Positions 9,946 through 64,000 of a stretch of DNA of 64,000 nt are shown piece after piece. A model generated the notes under the pieces. It did no database searches and was not told the DNA's origin. It worked only from the letters and a program-made list of their open reading frames with translations. Position 1 is the first letter of the stretch, and the number at the start of each line of letters is the position of its first letter. Both the position numbers and the translations under genes were made by a program. Source of the stretch: Alphaproteobacteria bacterium (GTDB lineage: Bacteria > Pseudomonadota > Alphaproteobacteria > Rs-D84); contig JAFURB010000017.1 of assembly GCA_017472065.1 (NCBI GenBank), positions 5,887-69,886 of the forward strand, written 5' to 3'.

Positions 9946-11526
9946 CTAGAATTTAATATTCAACCCAACACGAACCCCCAACGACTTAAAGAAGGAATCA
10001 ATTTCATCATCAATTGTATCCTTCCACCCATTGGAACGAACCTGATTAATATAAACCGCATCTGGATCTGGGGCATATTCTATGCCATCCTGAACAAAAC
10101 CATTTAACATATAGTTTTCACCATATTCCACCCCAAATTCAGCATTATACCCGGCCAACAAAGAATCATACAGCGCCTGATAATATTCTGGATTCAGATA
10201 TGTTGTCGCATCTGCACCACCAACACTGTAATAATCATATGTGATACCCAGTGTCAACGCAACTTTATCCGTCAGTGCTGTGCGCCAATTCGCCCCCAGT
10301 CCCAGGTGGAACGCACTGCCAAATCCCGCTTCGTCTTCAATTGATTTTGGATGTTGCCACTCGCTACGATATGGTTGATCGGCGGTTGCATTATACGATG
10401 GCAATCCTAATTCCACGCGGGCCGTTACTGCATTATTTTGATTAATATCATACAGCATATCAAACGCCAAATATGGCCCCGTCCATGTTACTTCATAAGA
10501 GTGACTAATATCTGATTGATGGAAATAAAATGACTCCATTGTATCCACATAGTCCCCATTTGCATTATCCAATGGGATACCAACAACATCCGCATAACTG
10601 TCACCGTTTATATCAATATATTCAAACTGTCCAAATGTATATTGAACCACGGTATCATCACCAGAACCCAAAACCTTAAAGAACGCAATTGCAGGCCAAC
10701 ACTGGGTCATACCACCATCGGTAATACACCCGTTATTTCCATCAATTGTATCAATTTTCATACCGTAATTATTAGATGTTTCCACCTTATACTTCAAATG
10801 TCGCCAACCAATCGATGGTGTAATTTTAACCTTGCCCCAGGTAAAGAAATCCTTTAATCCAATTCCTGCACGCAATCCCAACATATCACCATCTTTGCTT
10901 TCACCAACCGACAGCGCATGCCCATATTCCATATAAGAAACATCTTTATCTGTATCATCTGGCCATATGGCAACTTCGAACCCGCCATTGGTAACATCGT
11001 CGTCAATCATCGTGCCATTACCCATCTGAATACCATATTCCAATCCGGCTTCCAGTGTTAATGCGGTATTACCTGCCATAAAGTCATATCCAGCATTTAT
11101 ATCAAAAACACCCCACGACAAATTATCATAACGCAATATAGATCCTGCACTAGCCATATCAAATTGCCACATACCCGTTTTATATGACAAGCCTGTATCT
11201 ACATGAAACCCATTTGATTTATTGGCCGCGACCGGCTGTTGCGCCGACGAACGATTTTGTTGGGCCACATTACGGGCATTTTGCCCATATCGATTTGCAT
11301 ATGACGAATACCCCGTTGTGTTATAGCCTGCCGAACTATACCGTGCCTGATTATATGCCGACACACCCGATGTACTGCGTGTTGCCGTATTTGAAAACGC
11401 CGATGAATTATAACGTGTCTGGGGCGACTGATATGTACCATTATAATATGTTCCCGCCGCATTTACCGCAACCGGCATCAAGACCAGCAAAGAACATCCA
11501 CACAAAATTTTTGACCACTTTTTCAT
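9946..11526 (-). CDS. outer-membrane beta-barrel protein (526 aa) with S/Y/N/R/Q-rich N-terminal low-complexity region
   Basis: Signal peptide MKKWSKILCGCSLLVLMPVAVNA. C-terminal ...VRVGLNIKF with terminal Phe, typical of OMPs. Confidence 0.7.
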   Translation of the reverse strand: MKKWSKILCGCSLLVLMPVAVNAAGTYYNGTYQSPQTRYNSSAFSNTATRSTSGVSAYNQARYSSAGYNTTGYSSYANRYGQNARNVAQQNRSSAQQPVAANKSNGFHVDTGLSYKTGMWQFDMASAGSILRYDNLSWGVFDINAGYDFMAGNTALTLEAGLEYGIQMGNGTMIDDDVTNGGFEVAIWPDDTDKDVSYMEYGHALSVGESKDGDMLGLRAGIGLKDFFTWGKVKITPSIGWRHLKYKVETSNNYGMKIDTIDGNNGCITDGGMTQCWPAIAFFKVLGSGDDTVVQYTFGQFEYIDINGDSYADVVGIPLDNANGDYVDTMESFYFHQSDISHSYEVTWTGPYLAFDMLYDINQNNAVTARVELGLPSYNATADQPYRSEWQHPKSIEDEAGFGSAFHLGLGANWRTALTDKVALTLGITYDYYSVGGADATTYLNPEYYQALYDSLLAGYNAEFGVEYGENYMLNGFVQDGIEYAPDPDAVYINQVRSNGWKDTIDDEIDSFFKSLGVRVGLNIKF

Positions 11527-11621: not shown

Positions 11622-11707
11622 GCGGCCATGGCGGAATTGGTAGACGCGCAGCACTAAGGATGCTGTGGACAAAATCCTTGGGGGTTCGATTCCCCCTGGC
11701 CGCACCA
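11622..11707 (+). tRNA. tRNA-Leu, anticodon AAG (A34)
   Basis: Cloverleaf GCGGCCA/TGGCCGC acceptor, long variable arm, GGTTCGATTCC T-arm, encoded CCA. Anticodon stem CAGCA/TGCTG with loop CTAAGGA, anticodon at 11656..11658. Confidence 0.85.
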
Positions 11708-11709
11708 TT

Positions 11710-11737
11710 TCATATCTCATATCTCATATCTCATATT
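11710..11737. repeat. heptanucleotide tandem repeat (TCATATC) about 4 copies
   Basis: tcatatc tcatatc tcatatc tcatatt, starting 2 nt after the tRNA-Leu 3' end and upstream of giant Cys-rich gene A. Confidence 0.8.
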
Positions 11738-11784
11738 TCGCTTGCCCCGATTTTCTGAAATTTGCTACACTATCACACATAAGG

Positions 11785-14700
11785 ATGAAGGGAATTAAGA
11801 TAATTTTTGCCGTATGCCTTGCGTTGCTTGGGATTAGTGACGCGTGGGCCACGGATTCTGATGACGCAGTACGCGCCGCTACGCGTCGTGGTGAAACAAA
11901 TACGGTTACATCTGCACGCAAAAAAACTAATACCCCGGCGGTTTCATCAAATGTAAATGCGGTCACACGCGTTACAAATGCAACCGCAAAACAGGCACAA
12001 ACAATGCGCGAACGCGCAACAACACCCCGCACTGGCAATAATGTGTTAACACGCACATCAACGCCACAAAATAATAAACAGGTATCTGCCCGCACAGCAA
12101 CCAACATATCGTCACGCGCAACGACAACCGATGGCACAAAAAAAACAACCACATCACGACACGCATCGCCTGCGCGCGCCGCGACACGCACACCAACAAC
12201 CACCATCCGAACCAGCACGGCTGCACGCAACGCATCGCGTCGCACATCAATCGCACGCAGTGCCACAACCGACACCGCAAATCTGCGTGATGTGGTAATG
12301 AACGCAAATCACAAAGAATGTCGCGATGTCTTTTACAATTGTATGGATGAATTCTGCGCGAACAAAGACAGTCAACTAAAACGTTGTGCATGTTCGTCAC
12401 GCCTGCATGAATTTGACGGCATAAAAAAACAATTGGCCGTCGTCGAAGATAAAATGTTGGATTTTTCCCAACGTCTTTTAACGGTCAGTATGGATGCCGA
12501 AGATGCGGCCGCCCTGAACATCGCCACCGAAGGGGAACTGGCATTTAACCAAAAAGATACATCCGAATCAAAAAAATTATTGGATGAAATTGCAAAGAAA
12601 TTAAACACTAAATTTGATGACGATTCATTTGACAGAAACCTGACCGCAATATCATTGTCCTTGAACGAAGATGCGGCATTTGACAATGTTGATTCTTTGA
12701 TGGGGGCATCTACGACATTAAAGACCGGCACTGAATTACATGCGGCGGCCCTGCCGGTGTGTCGCGAAATGGCGGCCGAGGTTTGCACCCCCGACCAACT
12801 GGCCATTGCCGAAAGCGGTTATAAAATGATGATTGAACAAGACTGTAATACGGTAAAAAAATCGTATCAATCCCAAACAGATGCCGCCCGCACCAAGGTT
12901 ATGGAAAGCAGCGCGTTACTGGACATGTCGCGCCTAAACACATACCAAGATAGAAATTCAGACGACATATTAACATGCAAACGCAAAATGCTGGATATGT
13001 TAAGTGACACATCGGTCTGTGGTAAAAACCTGGCAAAGTGCTTGGATACAACGGGGCAATATATCAACCCATCAACCGGCGATGCGTTTTTAACCACCAA
13101 TTTGGCAAATCTAAGTACACTTATTAAACGACCAGATGCAAATAACACATGGACCAGCATGCCTGGCAACGAACGTTTTGTGCAACACTTAAATTCAAAA
13201 AAGACATATCTGGAACCTGCGATGGAACATTGCCAAGACATTGCAGATTCTGTGTGGGACGATTTTATCGAAGATGCGTTGGCACAAATAAAACTGGCCC
13301 AGGATGCCAAACTAGAAGAAGTTCGCCAATCATGCACCACACTTACCACACAATGTTTATCTGACACTGCTAAATCATTAACAGATTTTGATGCACGCGC
13401 CCTGTCAACATTTGGTGTTATCGCAGATATGACTGTAAACGCCATGTGTGCTGATGTAAAAACTGCATGTACTGCATTACTGGAAACAACCGGTGGCGGC
13501 ACAGATTGGGCGGGTGGCATGACAGAAATCGCCACCGACACAACATATGAGACAATAATTCAGACATGCCGCGAGGTTGGCCGTGCATGCATTGTTCAAA
13601 ATTGCCGTTCCATTTCTGGCAACTTTGGTCTGTGTGAAAACATTGAAACATCCGTTAATCGCAAGGCAATTATTCGTGGCACATCCTGCTGGGACGATGT
13701 TTTGAAATGCGTTGCCGATGCCGGCGCCGATTCGATTGAAAAAATTACAGCGCAATTGTCATCACGCAAAATCATCCCCGGTCCAGAAAACATTATCAAC
13801 GACGGCGATGAAATTATATCAACAACAACACCGCTTTATTCATTTTATAGTGAACTCTACGACATAACCATTGATGGTAAAAAATATGCTGCCCTGTCAA
13901 GCGACATCAGTGGCAACGGATACGATATTGCCAACTGCAGAATTTCTGGTGTAACCGTCACGGACGATAACGGTAATGAAACAAAATATGAACCAATGCG
14001 TTGTGTATACGACATGTGTGTTGCCAAGGGACAATGTGCCACAACCTATAATGACACATCAACCAAATGCAAAACATGTCGCATTGCCGAACGTATTTGG
14101 GGACATTGCGAAATGGATCCAATAACCCAATTACCTGGTGCAGACGAACACAATCAAATCTTGGCCCCATCTAATCGTGACGAAACAACATTATTATATT
14201 GGTTTGCACTAAATACCGGCACGGAAAATATGGCTGACTCTTGTCGCGACACATCATGCGGCCCCGGCGAAATGTTTAGCGCCACAAAAAATCAATGTAT
14301 CTCTGTCGAAGCAATCAGTAACGATGGCACCGAATGCGAATCCAGAAATCGTATCGCCGTCCCAGGTGCCCAGACAAATTGTTGCAGTGCAACATCAAAA
14401 GATTCGTGGGGCAATTGCTGTGGTGGTGTATTAAAAACACAAATCGCAGGATTCGATGCATCTATAACAGATTCGTATTTTGCCACACTGGACAAAACAC
14501 AAACAACAAACAACAACTACAAGATATGTATCCCAAGTGAGACACAAATCAATTTTGTTGTACAATTTGCCCCATCGGATACCACATATTATACGCTTGG
14601 TCGAAATATACTTGTATGTCTGGGTGATTTATCTGATGGTGGCGATACAAGTGGTGCGTTCCCATCGGGCGACACAATTGAATGTAACGGTCAATACATG

Positions 14701-14919
14701 GTTATAAACCTAGATTCTGGCATGTATTATGCCCCAACCCCATCTGCCCCGTCACCAAACATGTCATACAAAATTGATAATGGTTCGACAACATGCACCC
14801 TTGGGTATGACACATCAACCAACACATGGACATGGACACAAAGTGGTACCGGCGAAACATCATGCACGACATCAATGCCATCCGCAAATGATGGTTGGGG
14901 ACTAATGATACAATACTAG
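11785..14919 (+). CDS. giant secreted cysteine-rich protein, paralog A (1044 aa)
   Basis: Signal peptide MKGIKIIFAVCLALLGISDAWA. T/S/R/A-rich spacer. Signature CRDVFYNCMDEFCANKDSQLKRCACSS at 12319..12393. The ORF-track start 11665 lies inside the tRNA and is rejected. Confidence 0.8.
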   Translation: MKGIKIIFAVCLALLGISDAWATDSDDAVRAATRRGETNTVTSARKKTNTPAVSSNVNAVTRVTNATAKQAQTMRERATTPRTGNNVLTRTSTPQNNKQVSARTATNISSRATTTDGTKKTTTSRHASPARAATRTPTTTIRTSTAARNASRRTSIARSATTDTANLRDVVMNANHKECRDVFYNCMDEFCANKDSQLKRCACSSRLHEFDGIKKQLAVVEDKMLDFSQRLLTVSMDAEDAAALNIATEGELAFNQKDTSESKKLLDEIAKKLNTKFDDDSFDRNLTAISLSLNEDAAFDNVDSLMGASTTLKTGTELHAAALPVCREMAAEVCTPDQLAIAESGYKMMIEQDCNTVKKSYQSQTDAARTKVMESSALLDMSRLNTYQDRNSDDILTCKRKMLDMLSDTSVCGKNLAKCLDTTGQYINPSTGDAFLTTNLANLSTLIKRPDANNTWTSMPGNERFVQHLNSKKTYLEPAMEHCQDIADSVWDDFIEDALAQIKLAQDAKLEEVRQSCTTLTTQCLSDTAKSLTDFDARALSTFGVIADMTVNAMCADVKTACTALLETTGGGTDWAGGMTEIATDTTYETIIQTCREVGRACIVQNCRSISGNFGLCENIETSVNRKAIIRGTSCWDDVLKCVADAGADSIEKITAQLSSRKIIPGPENIINDGDEIISTTTPLYSFYSELYDITIDGKKYAALSSDISGNGYDIANCRISGVTVTDDNGNETKYEPMRCVYDMCVAKGQCATTYNDTSTKCKTCRIAERIWGHCEMDPITQLPGADEHNQILAPSNRDETTLLYWFALNTGTENMADSCRDTSCGPGEMFSATKNQCISVEAISNDGTECESRNRIAVPGAQTNCCSATSKDSWGNCCGGVLKTQIAGFDASITDSYFATLDKTQTTNNNYKICIPSETQINFVVQFAPSDTTYYTLGRNILVCLGDLSDGGDTSGAFPSGDTIECNGQYMVINLDSGMYYAPTPSAPSPNMSYKIDNGSTTCTLGYDTSTNTWTWTQSGTGETSCTTSMPSANDGWGLMIQY

Positions 14920-14927
14920 GACACAAA

Positions 14928-16298
14928 ATGAAGCATTTAACATACGCAACTATTTTTGTACTGATGACAATGCAACCGTTGATGGCAGCAACCAATACAT
15001 CTTGCGAAAGCATTAACACAGAACACAACAGTTGTGCAAGTATCGCAGGCTGTATGGCCGACCAAGAAAATCCTGGCACATGTATGGCATGTCCAGCTGG
15101 TAAATACGGTGCCGGGTGTACAAAATCATGCACCGCACATTACACATATAATTCTGGATGCGACGGGTGTGAATGGGGATACACAGGCGAAGGTTTTATA
15201 GATAACACTTGCTCTTGGTATGCGAATTGTCCTGCTGGATACTATTGGTCTGATGATTCTGGATGCCAGCCATGCGCTTCTGATGAATTTACACCAGACA
15301 AAACCGAAGTTGAATATTGGGGCGAAGAAATCACAAACACAGGCTACGTTTCATGCCAGAAATGCGGTGCATACTCAACAGGTATAAAACGCTACAATAC
15401 CAGCGATTCTGGTGGATGCAAATGCAACTTGGGATACCATGTACCAAATTCCAGGGAAGATGATAAAGAAACCTACACCGGTGAAGATTGTGTTCCCGCT
15501 ACATACCGAATCAGAATTTATAAAAATCATCCAGAGAATGAAAATGACGACGAATACATCACACTGTACGTGCGTTATGGAAAAAACGGCTTTGTCCAAG
15601 GCACCCCAACCGACGACAACAACCGTGATTCTTGGTTTGAATCAGCCTCTAAAACAAACGTCGTGCCAAATATTGATGATGGTACAAATTATAAATACCA
15701 AATAAATGAATACACAGACACCAAATGCGGTGTTGACGACTGTCCAGAAGACCCCACACTAATGCCTGGTGATGTTTATTCCGCACCCATCACGGACTTT
15801 ACAAGCGATACAGATTTGTATGCATGCTATAAGACAAAAACATATTCCATTATGTATCTCAGTGACCCCCAATCAACTGGCACACACCAAATTAGTCAAC
15901 TTACATATAACACACCACTACAATCAGCCATGGATATAGAAGATGTTTATGAACACGCCCCACATTTTTACGATCGGTGGGATGGAAAAATATTTTCGCA
16001 TTGGTCATGCCATGCATCAACATGTGATGACACAGAAATACACCCCGGCGATCCAATTCCAGAACCAAACGCCCCATACCCACAAACCCAATTAATCGCG
16101 GTTTTGAAAGACTGCGGTACTGGAAAGTATTGCAAAAACAATGAAGAAGATTACTGTCCCGCCGGCACAACAACCCTAATCACAACCGCGACCAGCGAAG
16201 CAGCATGCAAATTAACCAACAAAACAAAGTTCAAAGATAATACAGACCTGATTTTTAGTTTACCTATTTCAGATTCTACAACGATTTCTATAAAATAA
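14928..16298 (+). CDS. secreted cysteine-rich repeat protein (456 aa), partner of paralog A
   Basis: Starts 8 nt after the stop of A. Signal peptide MKHLTYATIFVLMTMQPLMA. Motifs CMACPAGKYGAGC, NCPAGYYW, CQKCGAYSTG, CPAGTTTLITTATSEAAC. F-x-x-W repeat resembling Listeria-Bacteroides-type repeats. Confidence 0.75.
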   Translation: MKHLTYATIFVLMTMQPLMAATNTSCESINTEHNSCASIAGCMADQENPGTCMACPAGKYGAGCTKSCTAHYTYNSGCDGCEWGYTGEGFIDNTCSWYANCPAGYYWSDDSGCQPCASDEFTPDKTEVEYWGEEITNTGYVSCQKCGAYSTGIKRYNTSDSGGCKCNLGYHVPNSREDDKETYTGEDCVPATYRIRIYKNHPENENDDEYITLYVRYGKNGFVQGTPTDDNNRDSWFESASKTNVVPNIDDGTNYKYQINEYTDTKCGVDDCPEDPTLMPGDVYSAPITDFTSDTDLYACYKTKTYSIMYLSDPQSTGTHQISQLTYNTPLQSAMDIEDVYEHAPHFYDRWDGKIFSHWSCHASTCDDTEIHPGDPIPEPNAPYPQTQLIAVLKDCGTGKYCKNNEEDYCPAGTTTLITTATSEAACKLTNKTKFKDNTDLIFSLPISDSTTISIK

Positions 16299-34219: not shown

Positions 34220-35332
34220 TTAAAAAATAACTTTGACATTAAATGCCGCGGTCTGGGCCAGATAGTCTGAACGCACATCTAATTTATATTCCAACCCCAT
34301 GCCCAAGAAACTATAAAACACATCTAACCCCACTGCCCCCGACAAAGAAAATTCACTTGGGGTTACAATTGGTATCATATATTGTCCACCCCCGACAACA
34401 TTTACATGCATATCATCGGTACCATTGCTGATAAAATCGTATCCCGCCCCCATGGAAATCCGCGGTCGCAGTGCAAACCCCAGGCTAACAAAATCCGCTG
34501 CCATATGGGCGCGCGCACCAACCGTCATTGTATTATACCACCACCGTCCAAATTCCTGGGCGGCATCATCGGTATGCTTTTCAGACATAATTCGTGAATA
34601 TCGCATAAACAATTGCGGAACAACACTAAATCTATTTCGACGCATTTGAATCCCGGTATTTATTTGCCCGGATATAAAGTCAACATCATATGCCGCCGAA
34701 TTTTCCACCCCGGCGATTACCTTGTCTAATTCCCAGTTTATCCGCCCACCATTTATCCCCACATTAATAAAAGCACCCGATTTACCCATGTATTTAGAAA
34801 ACAATGTCACACTGTTGCCTGTACCATCAACATCAACAACCGTATCCCGGCTGTTCAAATCAGAATATGTGTACGACATCCCAATGGCCAAACCATCACT
34901 GACAAATCCATACCCATGCATGGATGCGCCCTGACGACGCATTTTGAAAAAGTCATTATTGTTTGAATCAAACTTGTCATATACGGCAAAAACATCTGCA
35001 TCCAGATTAATTGGTGCCGCCCTTTCCCGCCGTCCTGGCAACGGCACATTAACCGCATCATATGAATTAGAAATCATTGACAGTGTTTCAAACATATTCA
35101 TACCGGTATCATTGTATGCCAACTGCGACACCATATTGTAAAAAGCCCCAATATTATTTTCCCGTGCATCATCGATATTGGCGGCAATTACCGCCCCTGT
35201 GACTGATTTAGACAACACATCTCCCCATGCATTTTGTGCGGCAACCAGATATTCGCGCCCCGCCCATGCGTTACCATCACCAATCAGAACACATCCGGCC
35301 CCAACCACAAAAAATTTACAGAATTTTTTCAT
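34220..35332 (-). CDS. autotransporter-type outer-membrane beta-barrel protein (short passenger)
   Basis: Signal peptide MKKFCKFFVVGAGCVLIGDGNAWA. Beta-domain-like strands. Ends AAFNVKVIF. Confidence 0.7.
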   Translation of the reverse strand: MKKFCKFFVVGAGCVLIGDGNAWAGREYLVAAQNAWGDVLSKSVTGAVIAANIDDARENNIGAFYNMVSQLAYNDTGMNMFETLSMISNSYDAVNVPLPGRRERAAPINLDADVFAVYDKFDSNNNDFFKMRRQGASMHGYGFVSDGLAIGMSYTYSDLNSRDTVVDVDGTGNSVTLFSKYMGKSGAFINVGINGGRINWELDKVIAGVENSAAYDVDFISGQINTGIQMRRNRFSVVPQLFMRYSRIMSEKHTDDAAQEFGRWWYNTMTVGARAHMAADFVSLGFALRPRISMGAGYDFISNGTDDMHVNVVGGGQYMIPIVTPSEFSLSGAVGLDVFYSFLGMGLEYKLDVRSDYLAQTAAFNVKVIF

Positions 35333-35419
35333 AACATATTCCAACTTTTTATGTTAATAATCATACCATCACGCATATATCACATGCACCAGGAACCATT
35401 TGCTAAGGGGATACAAACA

Positions 35420-41506: not shown

Positions 41507-41526
41507 GTTGCCTCCCCCAATTTTTT

Positions 41527-41593
41527 TAGGAAAACGGTCCTTTGGTTTCGGCATAAAATCGGGTTGACAGGTGGCTAAAAACTGGGATAAAAT
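41527..41593. promoter_or_regulatory. conserved upstream module copy 2 (reverse complement of 20349..20415, 2 mismatches seen)
   Basis: The plus strand contains TTGACA (41564..41569), an 18-nt spacer and TAAAAT (41588..41593), pointing away from the Cys-rich gene. Confidence 0.6.
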
Positions 41594-41606
41594 ACCATTG
41601 CAAGAT

Positions 41607-41636
41607 GTCGAAAACAAATCACCGTTTTTTTTCGGC
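41607..41636 (+). terminator. hairpin of module copy 2 (gtcgaaaacaaa-tcaccg-ttttttttcggc) followed by a T-tract
   Basis: Same 5' arm and loop as copy 1. The 3' arm is diverged (one G.U and one mismatch). Followed by attattttttt. Confidence 0.45.
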
Positions 41637-41728
41637 ATTATTTTTTTGCGTTTTTACAACTGTTTTCAATGCATTAACAAGAAAAAACACATTTTGCTTT
41701 TTTTTGATAAGATAAATAAAAGTTTATA

Positions 41729-59187: not shown

Positions 59188-62067
59188 ATGAAACGGATTT
59201 TGATTTTTATCATGACGTATATCGTCAGTGTCGGTATTGCCGACGCTGCTGTTCGTGATACCAATGCAATATCACGAAAATCAGCATCAACAAACAATTC
59301 TGTTGTATCGCGCACCAATACCACACAACGAACAAACGCCCGCACAACAACATCGCGAGCAACTGTATCTCGTCAACCCGATAAAAACACATCCCGCACA
59401 ACTACATCGCGTTCGCAATCCAACGTACGCACCGGGACCACATCACGCGCCGCGCGTGCAACAACTACATCACGCGCCGCCACCATGACACCGCGCACAT
59501 CAAATACAAAGGTTTCACGTTCTGCCACAAACATATCCCGCCCTGCCCGTGCGGCATCAATTACCGCATCACAATCACAGACATTTGGTACGGGATACAA
59601 CGCGTGTCGCGATGCATACTTTACATGCATGGACCAATTTTGTGCCACACAAAACGAATCGTACCGTCGCTGCACATGTTCATCACGACTGAACCAGATT
59701 AAATCCCGTGAAAACCTGTTATCACAGACGGCTGAACAATTACAAGATTTCAAAGACTTTAACCTTAGTGTGATTGATAAATCCGCCGCCGAGGTCAAGG
59801 CAATGATAAACGCCACATCGGGTGAATACATCGCATCATCATCCAGCGACAGATCTGAATCCGCGAAACAGTTATCCAGTATCGGTTCTATCCTGTCCCA
59901 GGCAAAATCAAAATCATTATCCACCGCCGGCACTGTGGATATTGGTGGTGACATTAAACAGATTTGGCAAACAACCGATCTTGCCAACGGGGCAGATATC
60001 GCGAACCTGACGGGTGAATCATTATACAATGCGGTCCATGCCCAGTGCAGTCAAATGGTGGCGGAAACATGTGAATCTAAATCAACCCTGAACATGGTGG
60101 TTTCTGCGTACGGTATGTATATCGAAAACGATTGCACCACCCTGTCAAACAGTTTGGATTCCAAAACCAATGCAGCCAAGGGTTCTGTGCGTGACACCGA
60201 ACGTGAAATGCACAACGCACGCCTTGACAACTATGATGCCCACAATTCAACATCTATTAATGATTGTGTTGCCCTGGTACGCGCAGACATAACGGCCAAC
60301 ACAGCATGCGGACCTGACTATGTACACTGTCTGGATGTAACCGGTCGATATCTAAATCGTGAAACGGGCGAACCAATTTACACATCTGAATTCTATCAAT
60401 TAAACGGCCAGATTTCATTATCTGGCAACATCCTTACCAACCAGACCAACCGCATGATTGTTGCCGAATTGAACCGCATGCGTAGTTTTGCAAATCTTAG
60501 TCTGGATACATGCCGCGATTTGGCCGACGATGTATGGGACGAATTCGTCCGCCAGGCCATAACTGAAATATACCAGGGCCAACAAGAACGCATCCGTACG
60601 GTCAAAAACGAATGCTTGGATGTTGTAAACGCGTGTTATGATGAAAAGAATCAGTCATTAAAAGACTTTAGCAATGTCAAAGAACAATTATTATTGGGCC
60701 AGCGCCTTGAACTATCCGAAGAACTATGTCGTGAAAAATTAGATGCCTGTTCCAATCTTTACGGTGGCGGTTCTGACGGCCTGCAAGAATTGCTGGTCGC
60801 GATGCACGAACTGACCGATTCCAAGATTGCCAAACAATGTCGCGTAACCCTGCAAGAATACGCGCGCGACATCTGTGCAGTCCCCAGCAACGACACCCTG
60901 CACGCATATCCATATTCATGCCGCGTATATGCCCCTGGCGAACAAAAGTATGCCCAAATCTACGCATGTAACCAACAGTTATGGTCAACCGAAACCGGAA
61001 ATTATTCATCCAGTTACATCCCACCCACAAATGACGGTAACGGTGGTTCTGGGTCAACACCGGGCATACCAACTGTATCTAATTATTCATGTCCAGCACT
61101 GCTTAGATACACCAGTTGTGCCGAAGGATATTACATGACACTGAACGGTGTATACAACAATGGCGAACCACAAATCGGCAATCAATGTACACCGTGTCCC
61201 GATGGATATACATGCGCCGGCGGCACCGCAGACAAGAAATCAATCGAACCAGACACACCCGAAAATCCGGACTCTGACACACCTGCCACAGACCTGGACA
61301 AATACGGACACGACTGCGGCGACTATGCGGGCAGTTTGTACCAACGCCTTGTTCGCTATGCAATCCAAACATGTATTCGCCCATCTGATGCGAACAGTTC
61401 GGATTACTCTTTATCCATTGATGTTTTACAAGATGTAAATGCCGTTATGGATTCAATCCGTGTTGACATGGGCAAATCATTGGCATACGAATGTGAACGT
61501 CTGGGTGGCACATGGGTTGACGCAATGTGGATTGATAACATCGACAAAGGTGAATGCAATGATCAAGTATGCATCCCAGATATAAAAGGTGCAGATAATA
61601 TCCACGACAAGACAGGCGACACACTGTACAAAAAATTCTATGATGAAACAGGCGCAAATACAAAATGGGGATATTGCAAACCAGACAATGGCACCAGCAA
61701 TGGCACTGGTTCCAACGGCGGCGATTCTGGCGGCAACAGTGGTGGCAGTTCTTTGGCCTGTACAGAAGGCGAAACATATACAATTACACTGGACAACACA
61801 ACAAACAGCGATTGTTGCCCAGAATCAGGCATATCAACCACCTCCCAAGAAGTTAGCGTTGTATGTGGCGAATTTCCAAAACTGTCGGTGATACGCGCAA
61901 CATGCACAACAAACCCCAATTGCGTATTAAGTTATTATTCAGATAACAAAACCGACCCATCTGACCCGGCCGCCATATACTTTAGCAGTAACGGAGAATC
62001 TCCTTCAATATACGGAAATGCCGCACTTAAAACAATCTATTCATATTGGGGTGAAATAGAAGATTAA
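59188..62067 (+). CDS. giant secreted cysteine-rich protein, paralog D (959 aa)
   Basis: Signal peptide MKRILIFIMTYIVSVGIADA. TTTSR-type repeats. Signature CRDAYFTCMDQFCATQNESYRRCTCSS (59605..59679). Collinear with paralog A. Confidence 0.8.
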   Translation: MKRILIFIMTYIVSVGIADAAVRDTNAISRKSASTNNSVVSRTNTTQRTNARTTTSRATVSRQPDKNTSRTTTSRSQSNVRTGTTSRAARATTTSRAATMTPRTSNTKVSRSATNISRPARAASITASQSQTFGTGYNACRDAYFTCMDQFCATQNESYRRCTCSSRLNQIKSRENLLSQTAEQLQDFKDFNLSVIDKSAAEVKAMINATSGEYIASSSSDRSESAKQLSSIGSILSQAKSKSLSTAGTVDIGGDIKQIWQTTDLANGADIANLTGESLYNAVHAQCSQMVAETCESKSTLNMVVSAYGMYIENDCTTLSNSLDSKTNAAKGSVRDTEREMHNARLDNYDAHNSTSINDCVALVRADITANTACGPDYVHCLDVTGRYLNRETGEPIYTSEFYQLNGQISLSGNILTNQTNRMIVAELNRMRSFANLSLDTCRDLADDVWDEFVRQAITEIYQGQQERIRTVKNECLDVVNACYDEKNQSLKDFSNVKEQLLLGQRLELSEELCREKLDACSNLYGGGSDGLQELLVAMHELTDSKIAKQCRVTLQEYARDICAVPSNDTLHAYPYSCRVYAPGEQKYAQIYACNQQLWSTETGNYSSSYIPPTNDGNGGSGSTPGIPTVSNYSCPALLRYTSCAEGYYMTLNGVYNNGEPQIGNQCTPCPDGYTCAGGTADKKSIEPDTPENPDSDTPATDLDKYGHDCGDYAGSLYQRLVRYAIQTCIRPSDANSSDYSLSIDVLQDVNAVMDSIRVDMGKSLAYECERLGGTWVDAMWIDNIDKGECNDQVCIPDIKGADNIHDKTGDTLYKKFYDETGANTKWGYCKPDNGTSNGTGSNGGDSGGNSGGSSLACTEGETYTITLDNTTNSDCCPESGISTTSQEVSVVCGEFPKLSVIRATCTTNPNCVLSYYSDNKTDPSDPAAIYFSSNGESPSIYGNAALKTIYSYWGEIED

Positions 62068-62903: not shown

Positions 62904-64000
62904 TTAGAAATCATATCTGAACTTTAACAAACCTGTTTGCGATGTATAATCTTGGTGCAAATCCAGTTCATAGTTCAATGATACTTCTAATCCACGATAT
63001 TCCGCAGTCAGCCCGATTCCAAATTCACCCCCCAGGCGGCTCAGACGATCGACATCCACATAATATGCCGACGCACCCGGCACAACAACCGTTGCCGTCG
63101 CATCATCGGACAAGAAATCATATGTCATCGCGGCACGCATTGTTGGACTGAATTTAACCGCAGAATCCGATTCGATTGTAAATGCATATTTCAAGCCTGC
63201 AACCCCGGACAAGAAATCTGCATCCATACCTGCGATTTCACGGTTCATGACATCAACATGATCTTCCTGGGAAACATGCAGATAGCGCATCCCAAATTCT
63301 GGTGTAACACCATTTGCAAAATCATAACCGAACATTGCCTGGGCGCCATATGATTTAGTTTCATATTCATCGTTCAACAGATATCCAAATACCATTGACG
63401 CATCGGCATAGTCTGATTTTGTATAATTCAATGTTGCGTTTACATACCATGCGGCTGGCTTATACTGAGCATACATGAATATAGAATTATTTTCTACATC
63501 CATATTGCGCCCATCGGCATGGATATCAGAATTACTGAACGCATAACCACCACCGATTGTTAACACATTGTCAATCAATGTATCGCCACCGATTGCAAAC
63601 CCACGCGTATAACCATGGAATTTGTCTGCGAATTTAGACTTGTTAAACATACCCTGGGTCCAAACACCGGCACCGGTTACATCGCCACCGGCACGTCCCG
63701 TCGCACCGCCACCAATTGCAGACATACGGCCGGCCGCCATTGTGACAACCTGGTTCTGGACAGATGCCGCCACCGATTGAGATACCGGTTTTGTATCTGG
63801 GTTTGCCTTGGCCATTTCTTTTTCAACCAATGCAATATCGCCATTGTTTAACGCGGCTTGGGCGCGCAAAGAAACCTGTTGAATTGTTGCATCTGTTGAT
63901 GCGGCCAGACCTGACACAGCACCTGCGGCGGCAATCGATGCACCGGTATCCGCGGCAATCGACTGGGCATCACGTGTGGTCAATGTAGCCTTTGTATTAT
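62904..64000 (-). CDS. autotransporter beta-domain protein (5' part outside window)
   Basis: Frame remains open to the right window edge. Beta-barrel region GVWTQGMFNKSKF...GFAIGGD... ends LLKFRYDF. Confidence 0.75.
   Translation of the reverse strand, partial: NTKATLTTRDAQSIAADTGASIAAAGAVSGLAASTDATIQQVSLRAQAALNNGDIALVEKEMAKANPDTKPVSQSVAASVQNQVVTMAAGRMSAIGGGATGRAGGDVTGAGVWTQGMFNKSKFADKFHGYTRGFAIGGDTLIDNVLTIGGGYAFSNSDIHADGRNMDVENNSIFMYAQYKPAAWYVNATLNYTKSDYADASMVFGYLLNDEYETKSYGAQAMFGYDFANGVTPEFGMRYLHVSQEDHVDVMNREIAGMDADFLSGVAGLKYAFTIESDSAVKFSPTMRAAMTYDFLSDDATATVVVPGASAYYVDVDRLSRLGGEFGIGLTAEYRGLEVSLNYELDLHQDYTSQTGLLKFRYDF

Follow-up and report, generated by a model that had tools for sequence, protein, structure and literature searches.

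Introduction

The cysteine-rich repeat Ephrin_rec_like (PF07699), formerly named GCC2_GCC3, is considered here together with the fold class of the cysteine-rich regions of TNF receptors (TNFR) and Eph receptors. It is held to be eukaryotic, and its rare bacterial cases have been put down to gene transfer (PMC6993872). The variable surface proteins (VSP) and high-cysteine membrane proteins of Giardia, the Listeria-Bacteroides repeat (Flg_new, PF09479), the chlamydial envelope proteins OmcA and OmcB with their porin, and the invertible promoters (invertons) of bacterial surface genes are the described systems closest to the locus analysed here. It comprises six genes for small exported cysteine-rich proteins in a window of 64,000 nucleotides (contig C10, positions 5887-69886; JAFURB010000017.1) from the 0.83-Mb, 17-contig genome of a gut alphaproteobacterium of the group Rs-D84. 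We number the genes P1 to P6 in order of position, P1 being the gene at 14928-16298 (Table 1). Enterousia / Rs-D84 are rod-shaped inhabitants of the gut whose genomes stay below about 1 Mb (about 0.8-1 Mb) and in which amino-acid, nucleotide and fatty-acid synthesis are missing (PMC12306168).

A preliminary description had grouped the six genes as exported proteins with eukaryote-like cysteine repeats. We lean towards the view that they encode Sec-exported, disulfide-rich proteins of several kinds in this reduced-genome bacterium, and that the variable families among them serve in attachment or evasion. Two of the six share a C-terminal domain (CTD) that defines a large protein family of this lineage.

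Export and cysteine content of the six proteins

All six open reading frames (ORFs) translate without stops, P4 on the minus strand. Each begins with a signal-peptide-like segment, in which a basic n-region and a hydrophobic core are followed by an AxA-type site, as called by a simple heuristic of our own and not by SignalP. The cysteine content amounts to 5.9 % in P1, 6.9 % in P2, 7.9 % in P3, 9.1 % in P4, 3.6 % in P5 and 3.9 % in P6, compared with a genome median of 1.03 % among ORFs of at least 300 aa. All six fall between the 93rd and the 100th percentile of these ORFs, with only moderate richness in P5 and P6. Together with the four giant genes of the window they occupy 16,854 nt or 26.3 %, in agreement with the share of about 26 % given in the preliminary description. 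The motif strings quoted there are all present in the ORFs named: CMACPAGKYGAGC, NCPAGYYWSDDSGCQPC, CPAGTTTLITTATSEAAC and KIFSHW in P1, CPSGYPNSSTGASAQTQCY and the terminal GKTFKGW in P5, CSSGYYSNGSTSTCTRCPNSS in P4, and CIECPDSQTQG and CWQCPDSN in P3. What did not hold is the treatment of the six as one group. They are heterogeneous and belong to several families, P6 lacks any of the motifs, and the six should not be annotated alike.

In the predicted mature proteins the number of cysteines is odd in five of six cases (27 in P1, 17 in P2, 29 in P4, 15 in P5 and 9 in P6), the sole even count being the 20 of P3. An unpaired cysteine might be used for cross-links between molecules, or the predicted cleavage sites could be slightly off. 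A membrane anchor was found in none of the six translations.

A C-terminal domain family of exported proteins

The CTD consists of roughly 70-80 residues at the extreme C-terminus of P2 and P4 and follows the pattern C..GYY...C..CP...GTT..GAT.IT.CY.P.GTYYD..GTF.....C.Y-stop. A profile was built from 18 copies, and a 17-row alignment was used for the database searches. In the genome search with the profile P2 scored E 6.9e-15; P4 has paralogues in its own genome, which holds seven strong CTD copies, all ending 0-6 residues from the stop. We compared 121 related genomes (18 genera), 298 other alphaproteobacterial genomes and 14 control genomes. The CTD was found in 86 of the 121 related genomes and in 15 of the 18 genera with 1-42 copies per genome, and in 0 of the 298 other alphaproteobacterial genomes. 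The comparison of family sizes proposed in the preliminary description therefore gave a large copy-number range for the CTD family, but not for P3 and P6 (see below).

Among 1.84 billion representative proteins the profile matched 1054 clusters (50 % identity, E ≤ 1e-3) with a top score of 114 bits; the global figures in the following refer to the best 150 representatives of these clusters. The CTD lies within 6 aa of the stop in 146 of the 150, the median length is 208 aa and the median cysteine content 8.3 %. The shortest CTD proteins (97-103 aa) contain little more than a signal peptide and about 80 residues with six cysteines, which probably form three disulfides. The N-termini in front of the CTD are unrelated to each other and range from nothing to Flg_new repeats to three colipase-like domains. 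The latter case is P0022, a 423-aa exported protein from a different Enterousia species (locus L043 of genome G100, C10 at about 128.0-128.6 kb), in which three tandem colipase-like domains precede the CTD. It matches Pfam Colipase with E 1.7e-20, and its domains are 33-41 % identical to what we take to be the vertebrate colipase sequence. Colipase is known as an animal protein, and the domains of P0022 may, judging from this similarity, have been captured from a host by a bacterium without fatty-acid synthesis.

An AlphaFold2 model of the last 137 residues of P4, calculated with a 150-sequence alignment, reached a pLDDT of 86.8 and a pTM of 0.74. The Foldseek list for this model contained almost exclusively TNFR-family receptors, Eph ectodomains, thyroglobulin and the cysteine-rich domain of CaSR (best E 0.86, TM ≤ 0.29), and the CTD profile touched only EphA4 (E 0.4) and thyroglobulin among the PDB sequences. 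The C.Y end was also considered as a β-signal of outer-membrane proteins; this was rejected, the model being a hairpin on a small disulfide domain and not a barrel.

A database locus search with a typical CTD member returned five loci in gut metagenome-assembled genomes (MAGs) labelled Rickettsiales or Alphaproteobacteria, and one labelled Muribaculaceae. The last of these (L105, CAZJGX010000008.1, MAG of an "uncultured Muribaculaceae bacterium") carries a CTD-family gene that is 57 % identical over 108 residues to the typical member. This contig is probably mis-binned or mislabelled rather than evidence of a Bacteroidota gene.

Among described families the CTD proteins come closest to the Giardia VSP and high-cysteine membrane proteins. 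Both are large multigene families with about 8 % cysteine and with C-x-x-C and G-Y-Y motifs, in which the C-terminus is conserved and the N-terminal parts vary, and selective expression of copies is likely in the CTD family. In contrast to VSP, the CTD proteins are bacterial and lack a transmembrane helix and the CRGKA tail, a coat of them is putative, and the candidate switch described below would act by DNA inversion whereas VSP control is RNA-based. We found no paper on such a CTD family; literature searches turned up nothing but papers that use the domain names for eukaryotes and general accounts of Enterousia genomes. A variable, possibly phase-variable exported family of known repeat types is of an already known kind. 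What appears to be new is the CTD family, how large it is in genomes this small, and that a eukaryote-type module is used throughout a lineage.

Allelic variation and candidate promoter switch

In a second sample the region upstream of P4 is identical, the signal peptide differs by one synonymous change and the last 135 codons show 0 differences. The variable N-terminal segment of the mature protein, by comparison, differs with dS 0.36, dN 0.16 and two indels. Across 11 P4 alleles from public assemblies blocks are reshuffled while all cysteines are invariant, and variable columns number 59 of 178 in the N-terminal versus 21 of 130 in the C-terminal part. The mosaic alleles thus point to recombination in a part whose variation is tolerated or selected.

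Upstream of P2 and P4 we found a common module of about 140 nt with a 96-nt core flanked by inverted repeats (arms AAACGGT ... ACCGTTT). Inside the core TTGACA-N18-TAAAAT points away from the P2 and the P4 gene, which we term the OFF orientation. The genome holds five copies of the module. At C11:27577-27673, before a CTD paralogue, the outer flanks are the same, the core is inverted and the promoter faces the gene. The copy at C15:10825-10921 stands before a CTD-like gene, and the one at C17:63691-63775 is a variant with a different core before an unrelated exported protein that is not cysteine-rich but rich in Ala, Gly and Thr. As far as can be read from these arrangements, P2 and P4 are probably switched on and off by promoter inversion.

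The module resembles known invertons such as fimS of E. coli and those of Bacteroides fragilis and of the variable lipoproteins of Mycoplasma, in that a short consensus promoter flanked by inverted repeats lies upstream of fast-evolving exported genes and both orientations occur, here among paralogous loci only. It differs from them in the length of the segment, which is just about 85-96 nt, and in that both states were not observed at one locus.

Gene callers add 44 codons (MPKKNGDLF...; window 41507-41638, minus strand) to the P4 gene because the OFF orientation of the switch happens to leave the reading frame open. The public records of P4 with 365-374 aa are probably over-extended in this way. 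A search of metagenome contigs with the 5' junction of P4 gave 0 matches.

P5 has a leader of another type. Its roughly 200 nt are matched nearly motif for motif before CTD genes of another species (genome G099, loci L087, L090, L091, L093 and L095), the elements in common being GCGAATATATTGAATAAGC..., the CTCCTGA/TCAGGAG hairpin and AACCTCCTGACCAC...GTGGTTTTT. Since the P5 leader also precedes CTD genes of that other species, the cysteine-rich families share regulatory elements. A second group of CTD genes in G099 has a different common upstream module of about 250 nt. A reverse match upstream of one G099 gene was considered as an inversion and rejected, being a divergently oriented second leader.

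Ephrin receptor-like and Flg_new-type modules

The preliminary description had associated the cysteine motifs with ephrin-receptor-like, furin-like and VSP-like repeats and the GKTFKGW or FSHW segments of two ORFs with Flg_new. Scans of the six proteins themselves against Pfam and NCBIfam returned nothing at E ≤ 0.1. The furin association was not borne out, with no match of the six to PF00757 or PF15913 and a single match among the 150 CTD representatives (Furin-like_2, E 0.0037). Nor did the VSP association hold for the six, which have no match to PF03302, no hydrophobic C-terminal helix and no CRGKA; VSP was matched by 6 of the 150 CTD representatives at E ≤ 0.01 (best E 1.1e-6). TNFR-like models were matched by 8 of the 150.

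For Ephrin_rec_like the evidence comes from the relatives. PF07699 (gathering score 23.1 bits) was matched by 6 of 15 members of the P1 family (best E 9.1e-6), by 11 of 17 CTD segments scanned singly (best 9e-7) and by 23 of the 150 full-length CTD representatives (best 1.4e-9). The pattern C-x2-C-P-x-G-x-Y ... G-A-x-S-x3-C is kept across the homologues of P1, P2 and P4 with invariant cysteines and nearly invariant G, Y and P; it is partly kept in the N-terminal module of P5 and is not kept in the homologues of P3 or P6. In a six-frame genome search with PF07699 the P3 region scored at chance level (11.2 bits, E 0.34) and P4 6.4 bits (E 8.5). In the same search an ORF of at least 2575 aa did score above the cut-off of PF07699, and Flg_new (cut-off 27 bits) exceeded its own nine times, mostly in a 3792-aa ORF. 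These two giants of the same genome therefore carry bona fide PF07699 and PF09479 repeats. With 5.6-6.1 % cysteine, they are probable adhesins and likely the reservoir of the modules in the small proteins.

Profiles were compared by hhalign with these repeats of the genome itself and not with the Pfam profile. Against the PF07699-type repeats, a small reference alignment including one probable false member, the CTD reached 81 % (P 1.2e-5), the C-terminus of P1 85 % (P 5.9e-6) and the N-module of P5 73 % (P 3.1e-5), with P values of 0.5-0.8 for the controls. Over all module links P ranged from 1e-5 to 5e-13, compared with 0.3-0.9 for the flat off-diagonal controls. The ephrin-receptor-like motifs thus found support for P1, P2, P4 and, in part, P5 through relatives, profile-profile comparison and models, but neither by direct scans nor for P3 and P6. 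The proteins share with PF07699 and the TNFR/Eph fold class the motif and the laddered cysteines, and their relatives and the giants pass the Pfam cut-off. The nearest PDB entries are the cysteine-rich region of EphA4/EphA2 and TNFR domains, none of them at a significant score. Unlike PF07699, they stay below the threshold themselves, and the CTD adds a terminal β-hairpin (CY.P.GTYYD..GTF.....C.Y) that is always the end of the protein. They are, moreover, bacterial and Sec-exported and lack a transmembrane receptor architecture.

P1, which follows the giant gene 11665-14919 at a distance of 9 nt, represents a fast-evolving family with relatives of similar length (23-38 % identity) in 12 of the 121 related genomes. 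In a family alignment of 15 sequences 14 columns are invariant, mostly cysteines, and the layout is kept, with N-terminal C..C..G.Y repeats followed by two domains with Y.I.Y ... LYA.W and GK.F..W.C. Its C-terminal module reads C-x-x-G-x-Y-C ... C-P-A-G-T-T-T ... A-T-S-x3-C and then a β tail, the family consensus being CPAGYYC..G....CPAGTTS..GA.S...C...GTKFCD....CF.LP. The AlphaFold2 model of P1 reached a pLDDT of 63.7, its best parts being the C-terminus and the two central domains. Foldseek listed tandem or di-ubiquitin-like folds, YwfG and the InlB B-repeat for it (E 2e-3 to 5e-2, probability up to 0.97). Structure prediction, another check proposed in the preliminary description, therefore supplied nearest folds of the TNFR/Eph type for the CTD and of the InlB B-repeat or ubiquitin-like type for P1, but no significant structural neighbour.

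The central domains of P1 aligned with the Flg_new repeats of the genome at P 8e-6 and 4.6e-5, compared with 0.4-0.7 for control segments. P5 is a second multi-copy family, in this case with a hypervariable centre. It has matches in 53 of the 121 genomes, full-length copies in a subset of these (about 5 in G055; several, some of them tandem, in G066) and a 63 % identical paralogue at C16:102234-103640. The centre differs between members by large indels, while the C-part is conserved and ends in ...PGKTF.GW.F. Its N-module is common to giants of 2000-3700 aa, and tblastn aligns it to both giants of its own genome. In Pfam scans PF09479 was matched by neither P1 nor P5 itself. It was matched by 3 of 15 members of the P1 family (best E 5.2e-8) and by relatives of P5 with 29.7 bits (last 40 residues) and 26.2 bits. 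These relatives match only positions 2-39 of the 65 of the model, and the repeat of P5 is accordingly a truncated one. The Flg_new-type segments seen in two ORFs were therefore recognised by PF09479 in some relatives of P1 and P5 but in neither ORF itself. As in the Listeria-Bacteroides repeat, Y-x-I-x-Y ... P-x-x-x-G-x-x-F-x-G/H-W occurs in P1 (two copies) and at the C-terminus of P5. Relatives reach or approach the Pfam cut-off, and the folds nearest to the P1 model are the InlB B-repeat and ubiquitin-like. In contrast to the Listeria-Bacteroides repeat, cysteines interrupt the repeats, and P5 stops at model position 39. P5 was also considered as a lipoprotein; this was rejected, a permissive lipobox fitting P5 and not its paralogue, while both keep AxA before a conserved mature N-terminus.

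On the basis of relatives, profile-profile comparison and models, and with no direct Pfam pass, we read P1, P2, P4 and P5 as built from ephrin/TNF-receptor-type cysteine modules and Flg_new-type repeats. Could the motifs instead arise by chance from a composition rich in Cys, Gly, Ser, Thr and Tyr, with no real modules in common? Enrichment over single-sequence shuffles was modest (C-x-x-G-[YFW] in three ORFs, P about 0.002-0.007; C-x-x-C-P in two, P about 0.0004-0.0014), C-x-x-C was not enriched over shuffles, direct Pfam matches are missing, and the bias filters of an all-versus-all phmmer search of candidate exported cysteine-rich ORFs dropped most paralogue links, for which tblastn and custom profiles were used instead. 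We nevertheless give this explanation almost no credence. Invariance across divergent homologues is stronger evidence than shuffles, and the cysteine columns do not vary within families of 25-40 % identity. The preliminary description had named the lack of any family match together with random cysteine spacing as the outcome that would speak against it; direct matches are indeed lacking, yet the spacing is conserved. Furthermore, the CTD profile reaches its high scores in a search of all proteins, the profile-profile matches are specific with flat controls, and the CTD is modelled confidently. For five of the six families the conservation data refute a chance origin.

PF07699 exceeds its cut-off in 87 of the 121 related genomes, compared with 5 of the 298 other alphaproteobacterial genomes (G318, G333, G345, G361 and G386, mostly small with 1.2-1.9 Mb) and 0 of the 14 controls. 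The small size of most of these five genomes hints that the domain recurs in reduced, possibly host-associated lineages. The distribution of a module regarded as eukaryotic (PMC6993872) could also suit proteins that are not a cell coat at all but leave the cell for the gut. With their eukaryote-type domains they would bind molecules of the host or of protists, as decoys or as adaptors for scavenging; TNF or ephrin-family ligands, and pancreatic lipase for the colipase-bearing member, are possible targets. The triple colipase of P0022, the lack of an anchor in the six and the biosynthetic deficits of these bacteria (PMC12306168) are in line with release. On the other hand, neither ligand-binding residues nor similarity to a single receptor was found, PDB sequence matches were at E 0.4 or worse, no secretion system for release was identified, and one CTD common to dozens of proteins fits docking or sorting better than dozens of ligands. 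We regard such released effectors as quite unlikely.

Single-copy proteins and a possible structural envelope

P3 and P6 are conserved orphan envelope proteins, mostly and strictly single-copy, respectively, which are not to be filed with the repeat proteins. P3 occurs in 40 of the 121 genomes, mostly with one copy, at 35-49 % identity. Its family has 20 conserved cysteines and 31 invariant columns; it gave no recurrent match in Pfam and PDB, and an ephrin-receptor likeness is not demonstrable. P6 occurs in 91 of the 121 genomes with exactly one copy each, mostly at 40-67 % identity. Nine cysteines are conserved in its alignment, and neither an ephrin-type or Flg_new-type motif nor a Pfam or NCBIfam match was found.

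The six genes do not form an island but are scattered through the window among housekeeping genes (polA, clpX, gap, miaA, grpE and a SurA-like gene) and outer-membrane genes. Since a porin, autotransporter β-domains and a SurA-like chaperone are encoded there, an outer membrane is present. The porin is a 526-aa ORF at 9946-11526 on the minus strand that scores over the cut-off for Pom, an outer membrane protein family of Protochlamydia (E 5.9e-10). The giant gene 11665-14919 and P1 are its divergently oriented neighbours, which recalls the chlamydial arrangement of porin and Omc genes. Two short ORFs on the minus strand, 34220-35344 (374 aa) and 62904-63983 (359 aa), contain little beyond an autotransporter β-domain; the latter follows directly after P6 on the opposite strand.

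This setting brings up the main rival of a variable surface repertoire, namely that the small cysteine-rich proteins and the four giant C-M-D-x-F-C proteins form a disulfide-cross-linked complex of the outer membrane or periplasm, modelled on chlamydial OmcA (small) and OmcB (large) with the porin, which would provide rigidity and not variability. As in chlamydiae, a large and then a small cysteine-rich gene stand near a Pom-type porin in a diderm with a reduced genome. P1 and P6 follow directly on giants, at distances of 9 nt and 56 nt, and co-transcription with them is probable, P6 is a core gene and P3 mostly single-copy, the Pom gene adjoins the first giant/P1 pair, and the odd cysteine counts of five of the six would leave one residue free for intermolecular links. 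A structural shell, however, sits poorly with a CTD copy number of 0-42 among otherwise similar genomes, with natural genomes that appear to lack any CTD gene, with the presence of P1 relatives in so few genomes, and with unrelated N-termini and mosaic alleles; a switch-like promoter module would be unexpected for it. There is no sequence similarity to chlamydial Omc families in the Pfam scan of the six, and in contrast to OmcA and OmcB the CTD and P5 families are multi-copy and variable. As an account of the whole set we consider this structure possible though doubtful. It fits P6, P3 and perhaps P1 better than the variable families.

Table 1 Features of the six genes, their upstream elements and the two giant genes of the same genome. 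Positions without a contig name refer to the window.
Feature	Position	Strand	Description
P1	14928..16298	+	456 aa (translation); signal peptide 1-21, N-terminal Cys-rich repeats about 22-190, Flg_new-like β-grasp domains about 186-300 and 298-397, C-terminal Cys module 395-456
P1 C-terminal module, CTD variant	16110..16295	+	hhalign 97.9 %, P 5.5e-13 against CTD profile
Promoter module flanked by inverted repeats, upstream of P2	20315..20410		96 nt, OFF orientation
P2	20446..21228	+	260 aa; signal peptide, variable Cys-rich N-part, CTD at residues about 184-259
CTD of P2	20995..21222	+	hmmsearch E 2.3e-15, end 1 aa before stop
P3	36486..37283	+	265 aa, exported orphan, C-x-x-C-P motifs
P4	40514..41506	-	330 aa from MKKIL, 30 Cys; variable N-terminal half, conserved C-terminal half
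CTD of P4	40520..40735	-	residues 258-329, hmmsearch E 2.1e-24
Promoter module flanked by inverted repeats, second copy, upstream of P4	41532..41627		OFF orientation
Structured leader upstream of P5	52248..52541	+	hairpin CTCCTGA...TCAGGAG, then AACCTCCTGACCAC...GTGGTTTTT
P5	52542..53891	+	449 aa; N-module 27-175, hypervariable indel-rich centre about 176-315, conserved Cys-rich C-part
Truncated Flg_new repeat, C-terminus of P5	53739..53876	+	I400-F445 (...PGKTFKGWKF), hhalign 92 %, P 5.3e-7 against the genome's Flg_new repeats
P6	62124..62825	+	233 aa, exported, immediately downstream of giant gene 59188-62067
Giant exported protein	C12:70000-81375	-	3792 aa, many Flg_new and Ephrin_rec_like-type repeats
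Giant exported protein	C12:135317-143041	-	at least 2575 aa, many Flg_new and Ephrin_rec_like-type repeats

Discussion

From the sequences we derive, as the most likely role of the variable families, that they act at the cell surface in attaching to, or in evading, a host, a partner cell, a phage or the immune system. We propose that the proteins are exported by Sec and cleaved by signal peptidase I, as their N-termini predict, and would then fold oxidatively in the periplasm. The conserved CTD may act as a common scaffold and as a docking or targeting unit, while the N-terminal part would form the exposed, interacting and antigenically variable surface. The repertoire would be varied by the copy number of 0-42 per genome, by recombination of alleles as shown for P4, and probably by switching on and off, for which the module upstream of P2 and P4 would be the switch.

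Several points weigh against a variable surface repertoire. A Sec signal reaches only the periplasm of a diderm, and neither a route across the outer membrane nor an anchor was identified; the formation of disulfides is an assumption. The six themselves all stay below the curated family thresholds of Pfam and NCBIfam, the CTD model has no statistically significant structural neighbour in Foldseek at its best E of 0.86, and the best E of 2e-3 for the P1 model is likewise counted as not significant. In the variable part of P4 dN/dS is 0.44 and not above 1, and the pattern does not prove positive selection. The P4 locus is OFF in six of six assemblies from different samples, so that no single locus has been seen to invert. 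The exact switch sequence had 0 matches in 12 other CTD-rich genomes and is therefore species-specific.

A bolder form of the surface repertoire would make the CTD family the bacterial counterpart of the Giardia VSP coat, that is, a switchable repertoire of dozens of disulfide-stabilised proteins whose eukaryote-type cysteine module possibly came from a eukaryotic host or gut protist and whose CTD docks passengers including captured host domains such as the triple colipase. We consider this unlikely. If true, such captured domains would let the bacterium exploit the digestive machinery of its host or evade its immunity.

Conclusions

Our findings make Ephrin_rec_like a hallmark of a whole bacterial family, with 72 % of the genomes of this lineage compared with under 2 % of other Alphaproteobacteria. 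The CTD is small, is confidently modelled and comprises about 1000 clusters, and it therefore suits structure determination and a new family model. Since a genome of about 1 Mb can hold 42 CTD matches, we estimate that some genomes give several per cent of their genes to one small exported cysteine-rich family that no database describes. Where genes are invested this heavily, contact with a host or partner is usually involved, and the CTD family is thus a lead to the lifestyle of an uncultured and widespread gut lineage.

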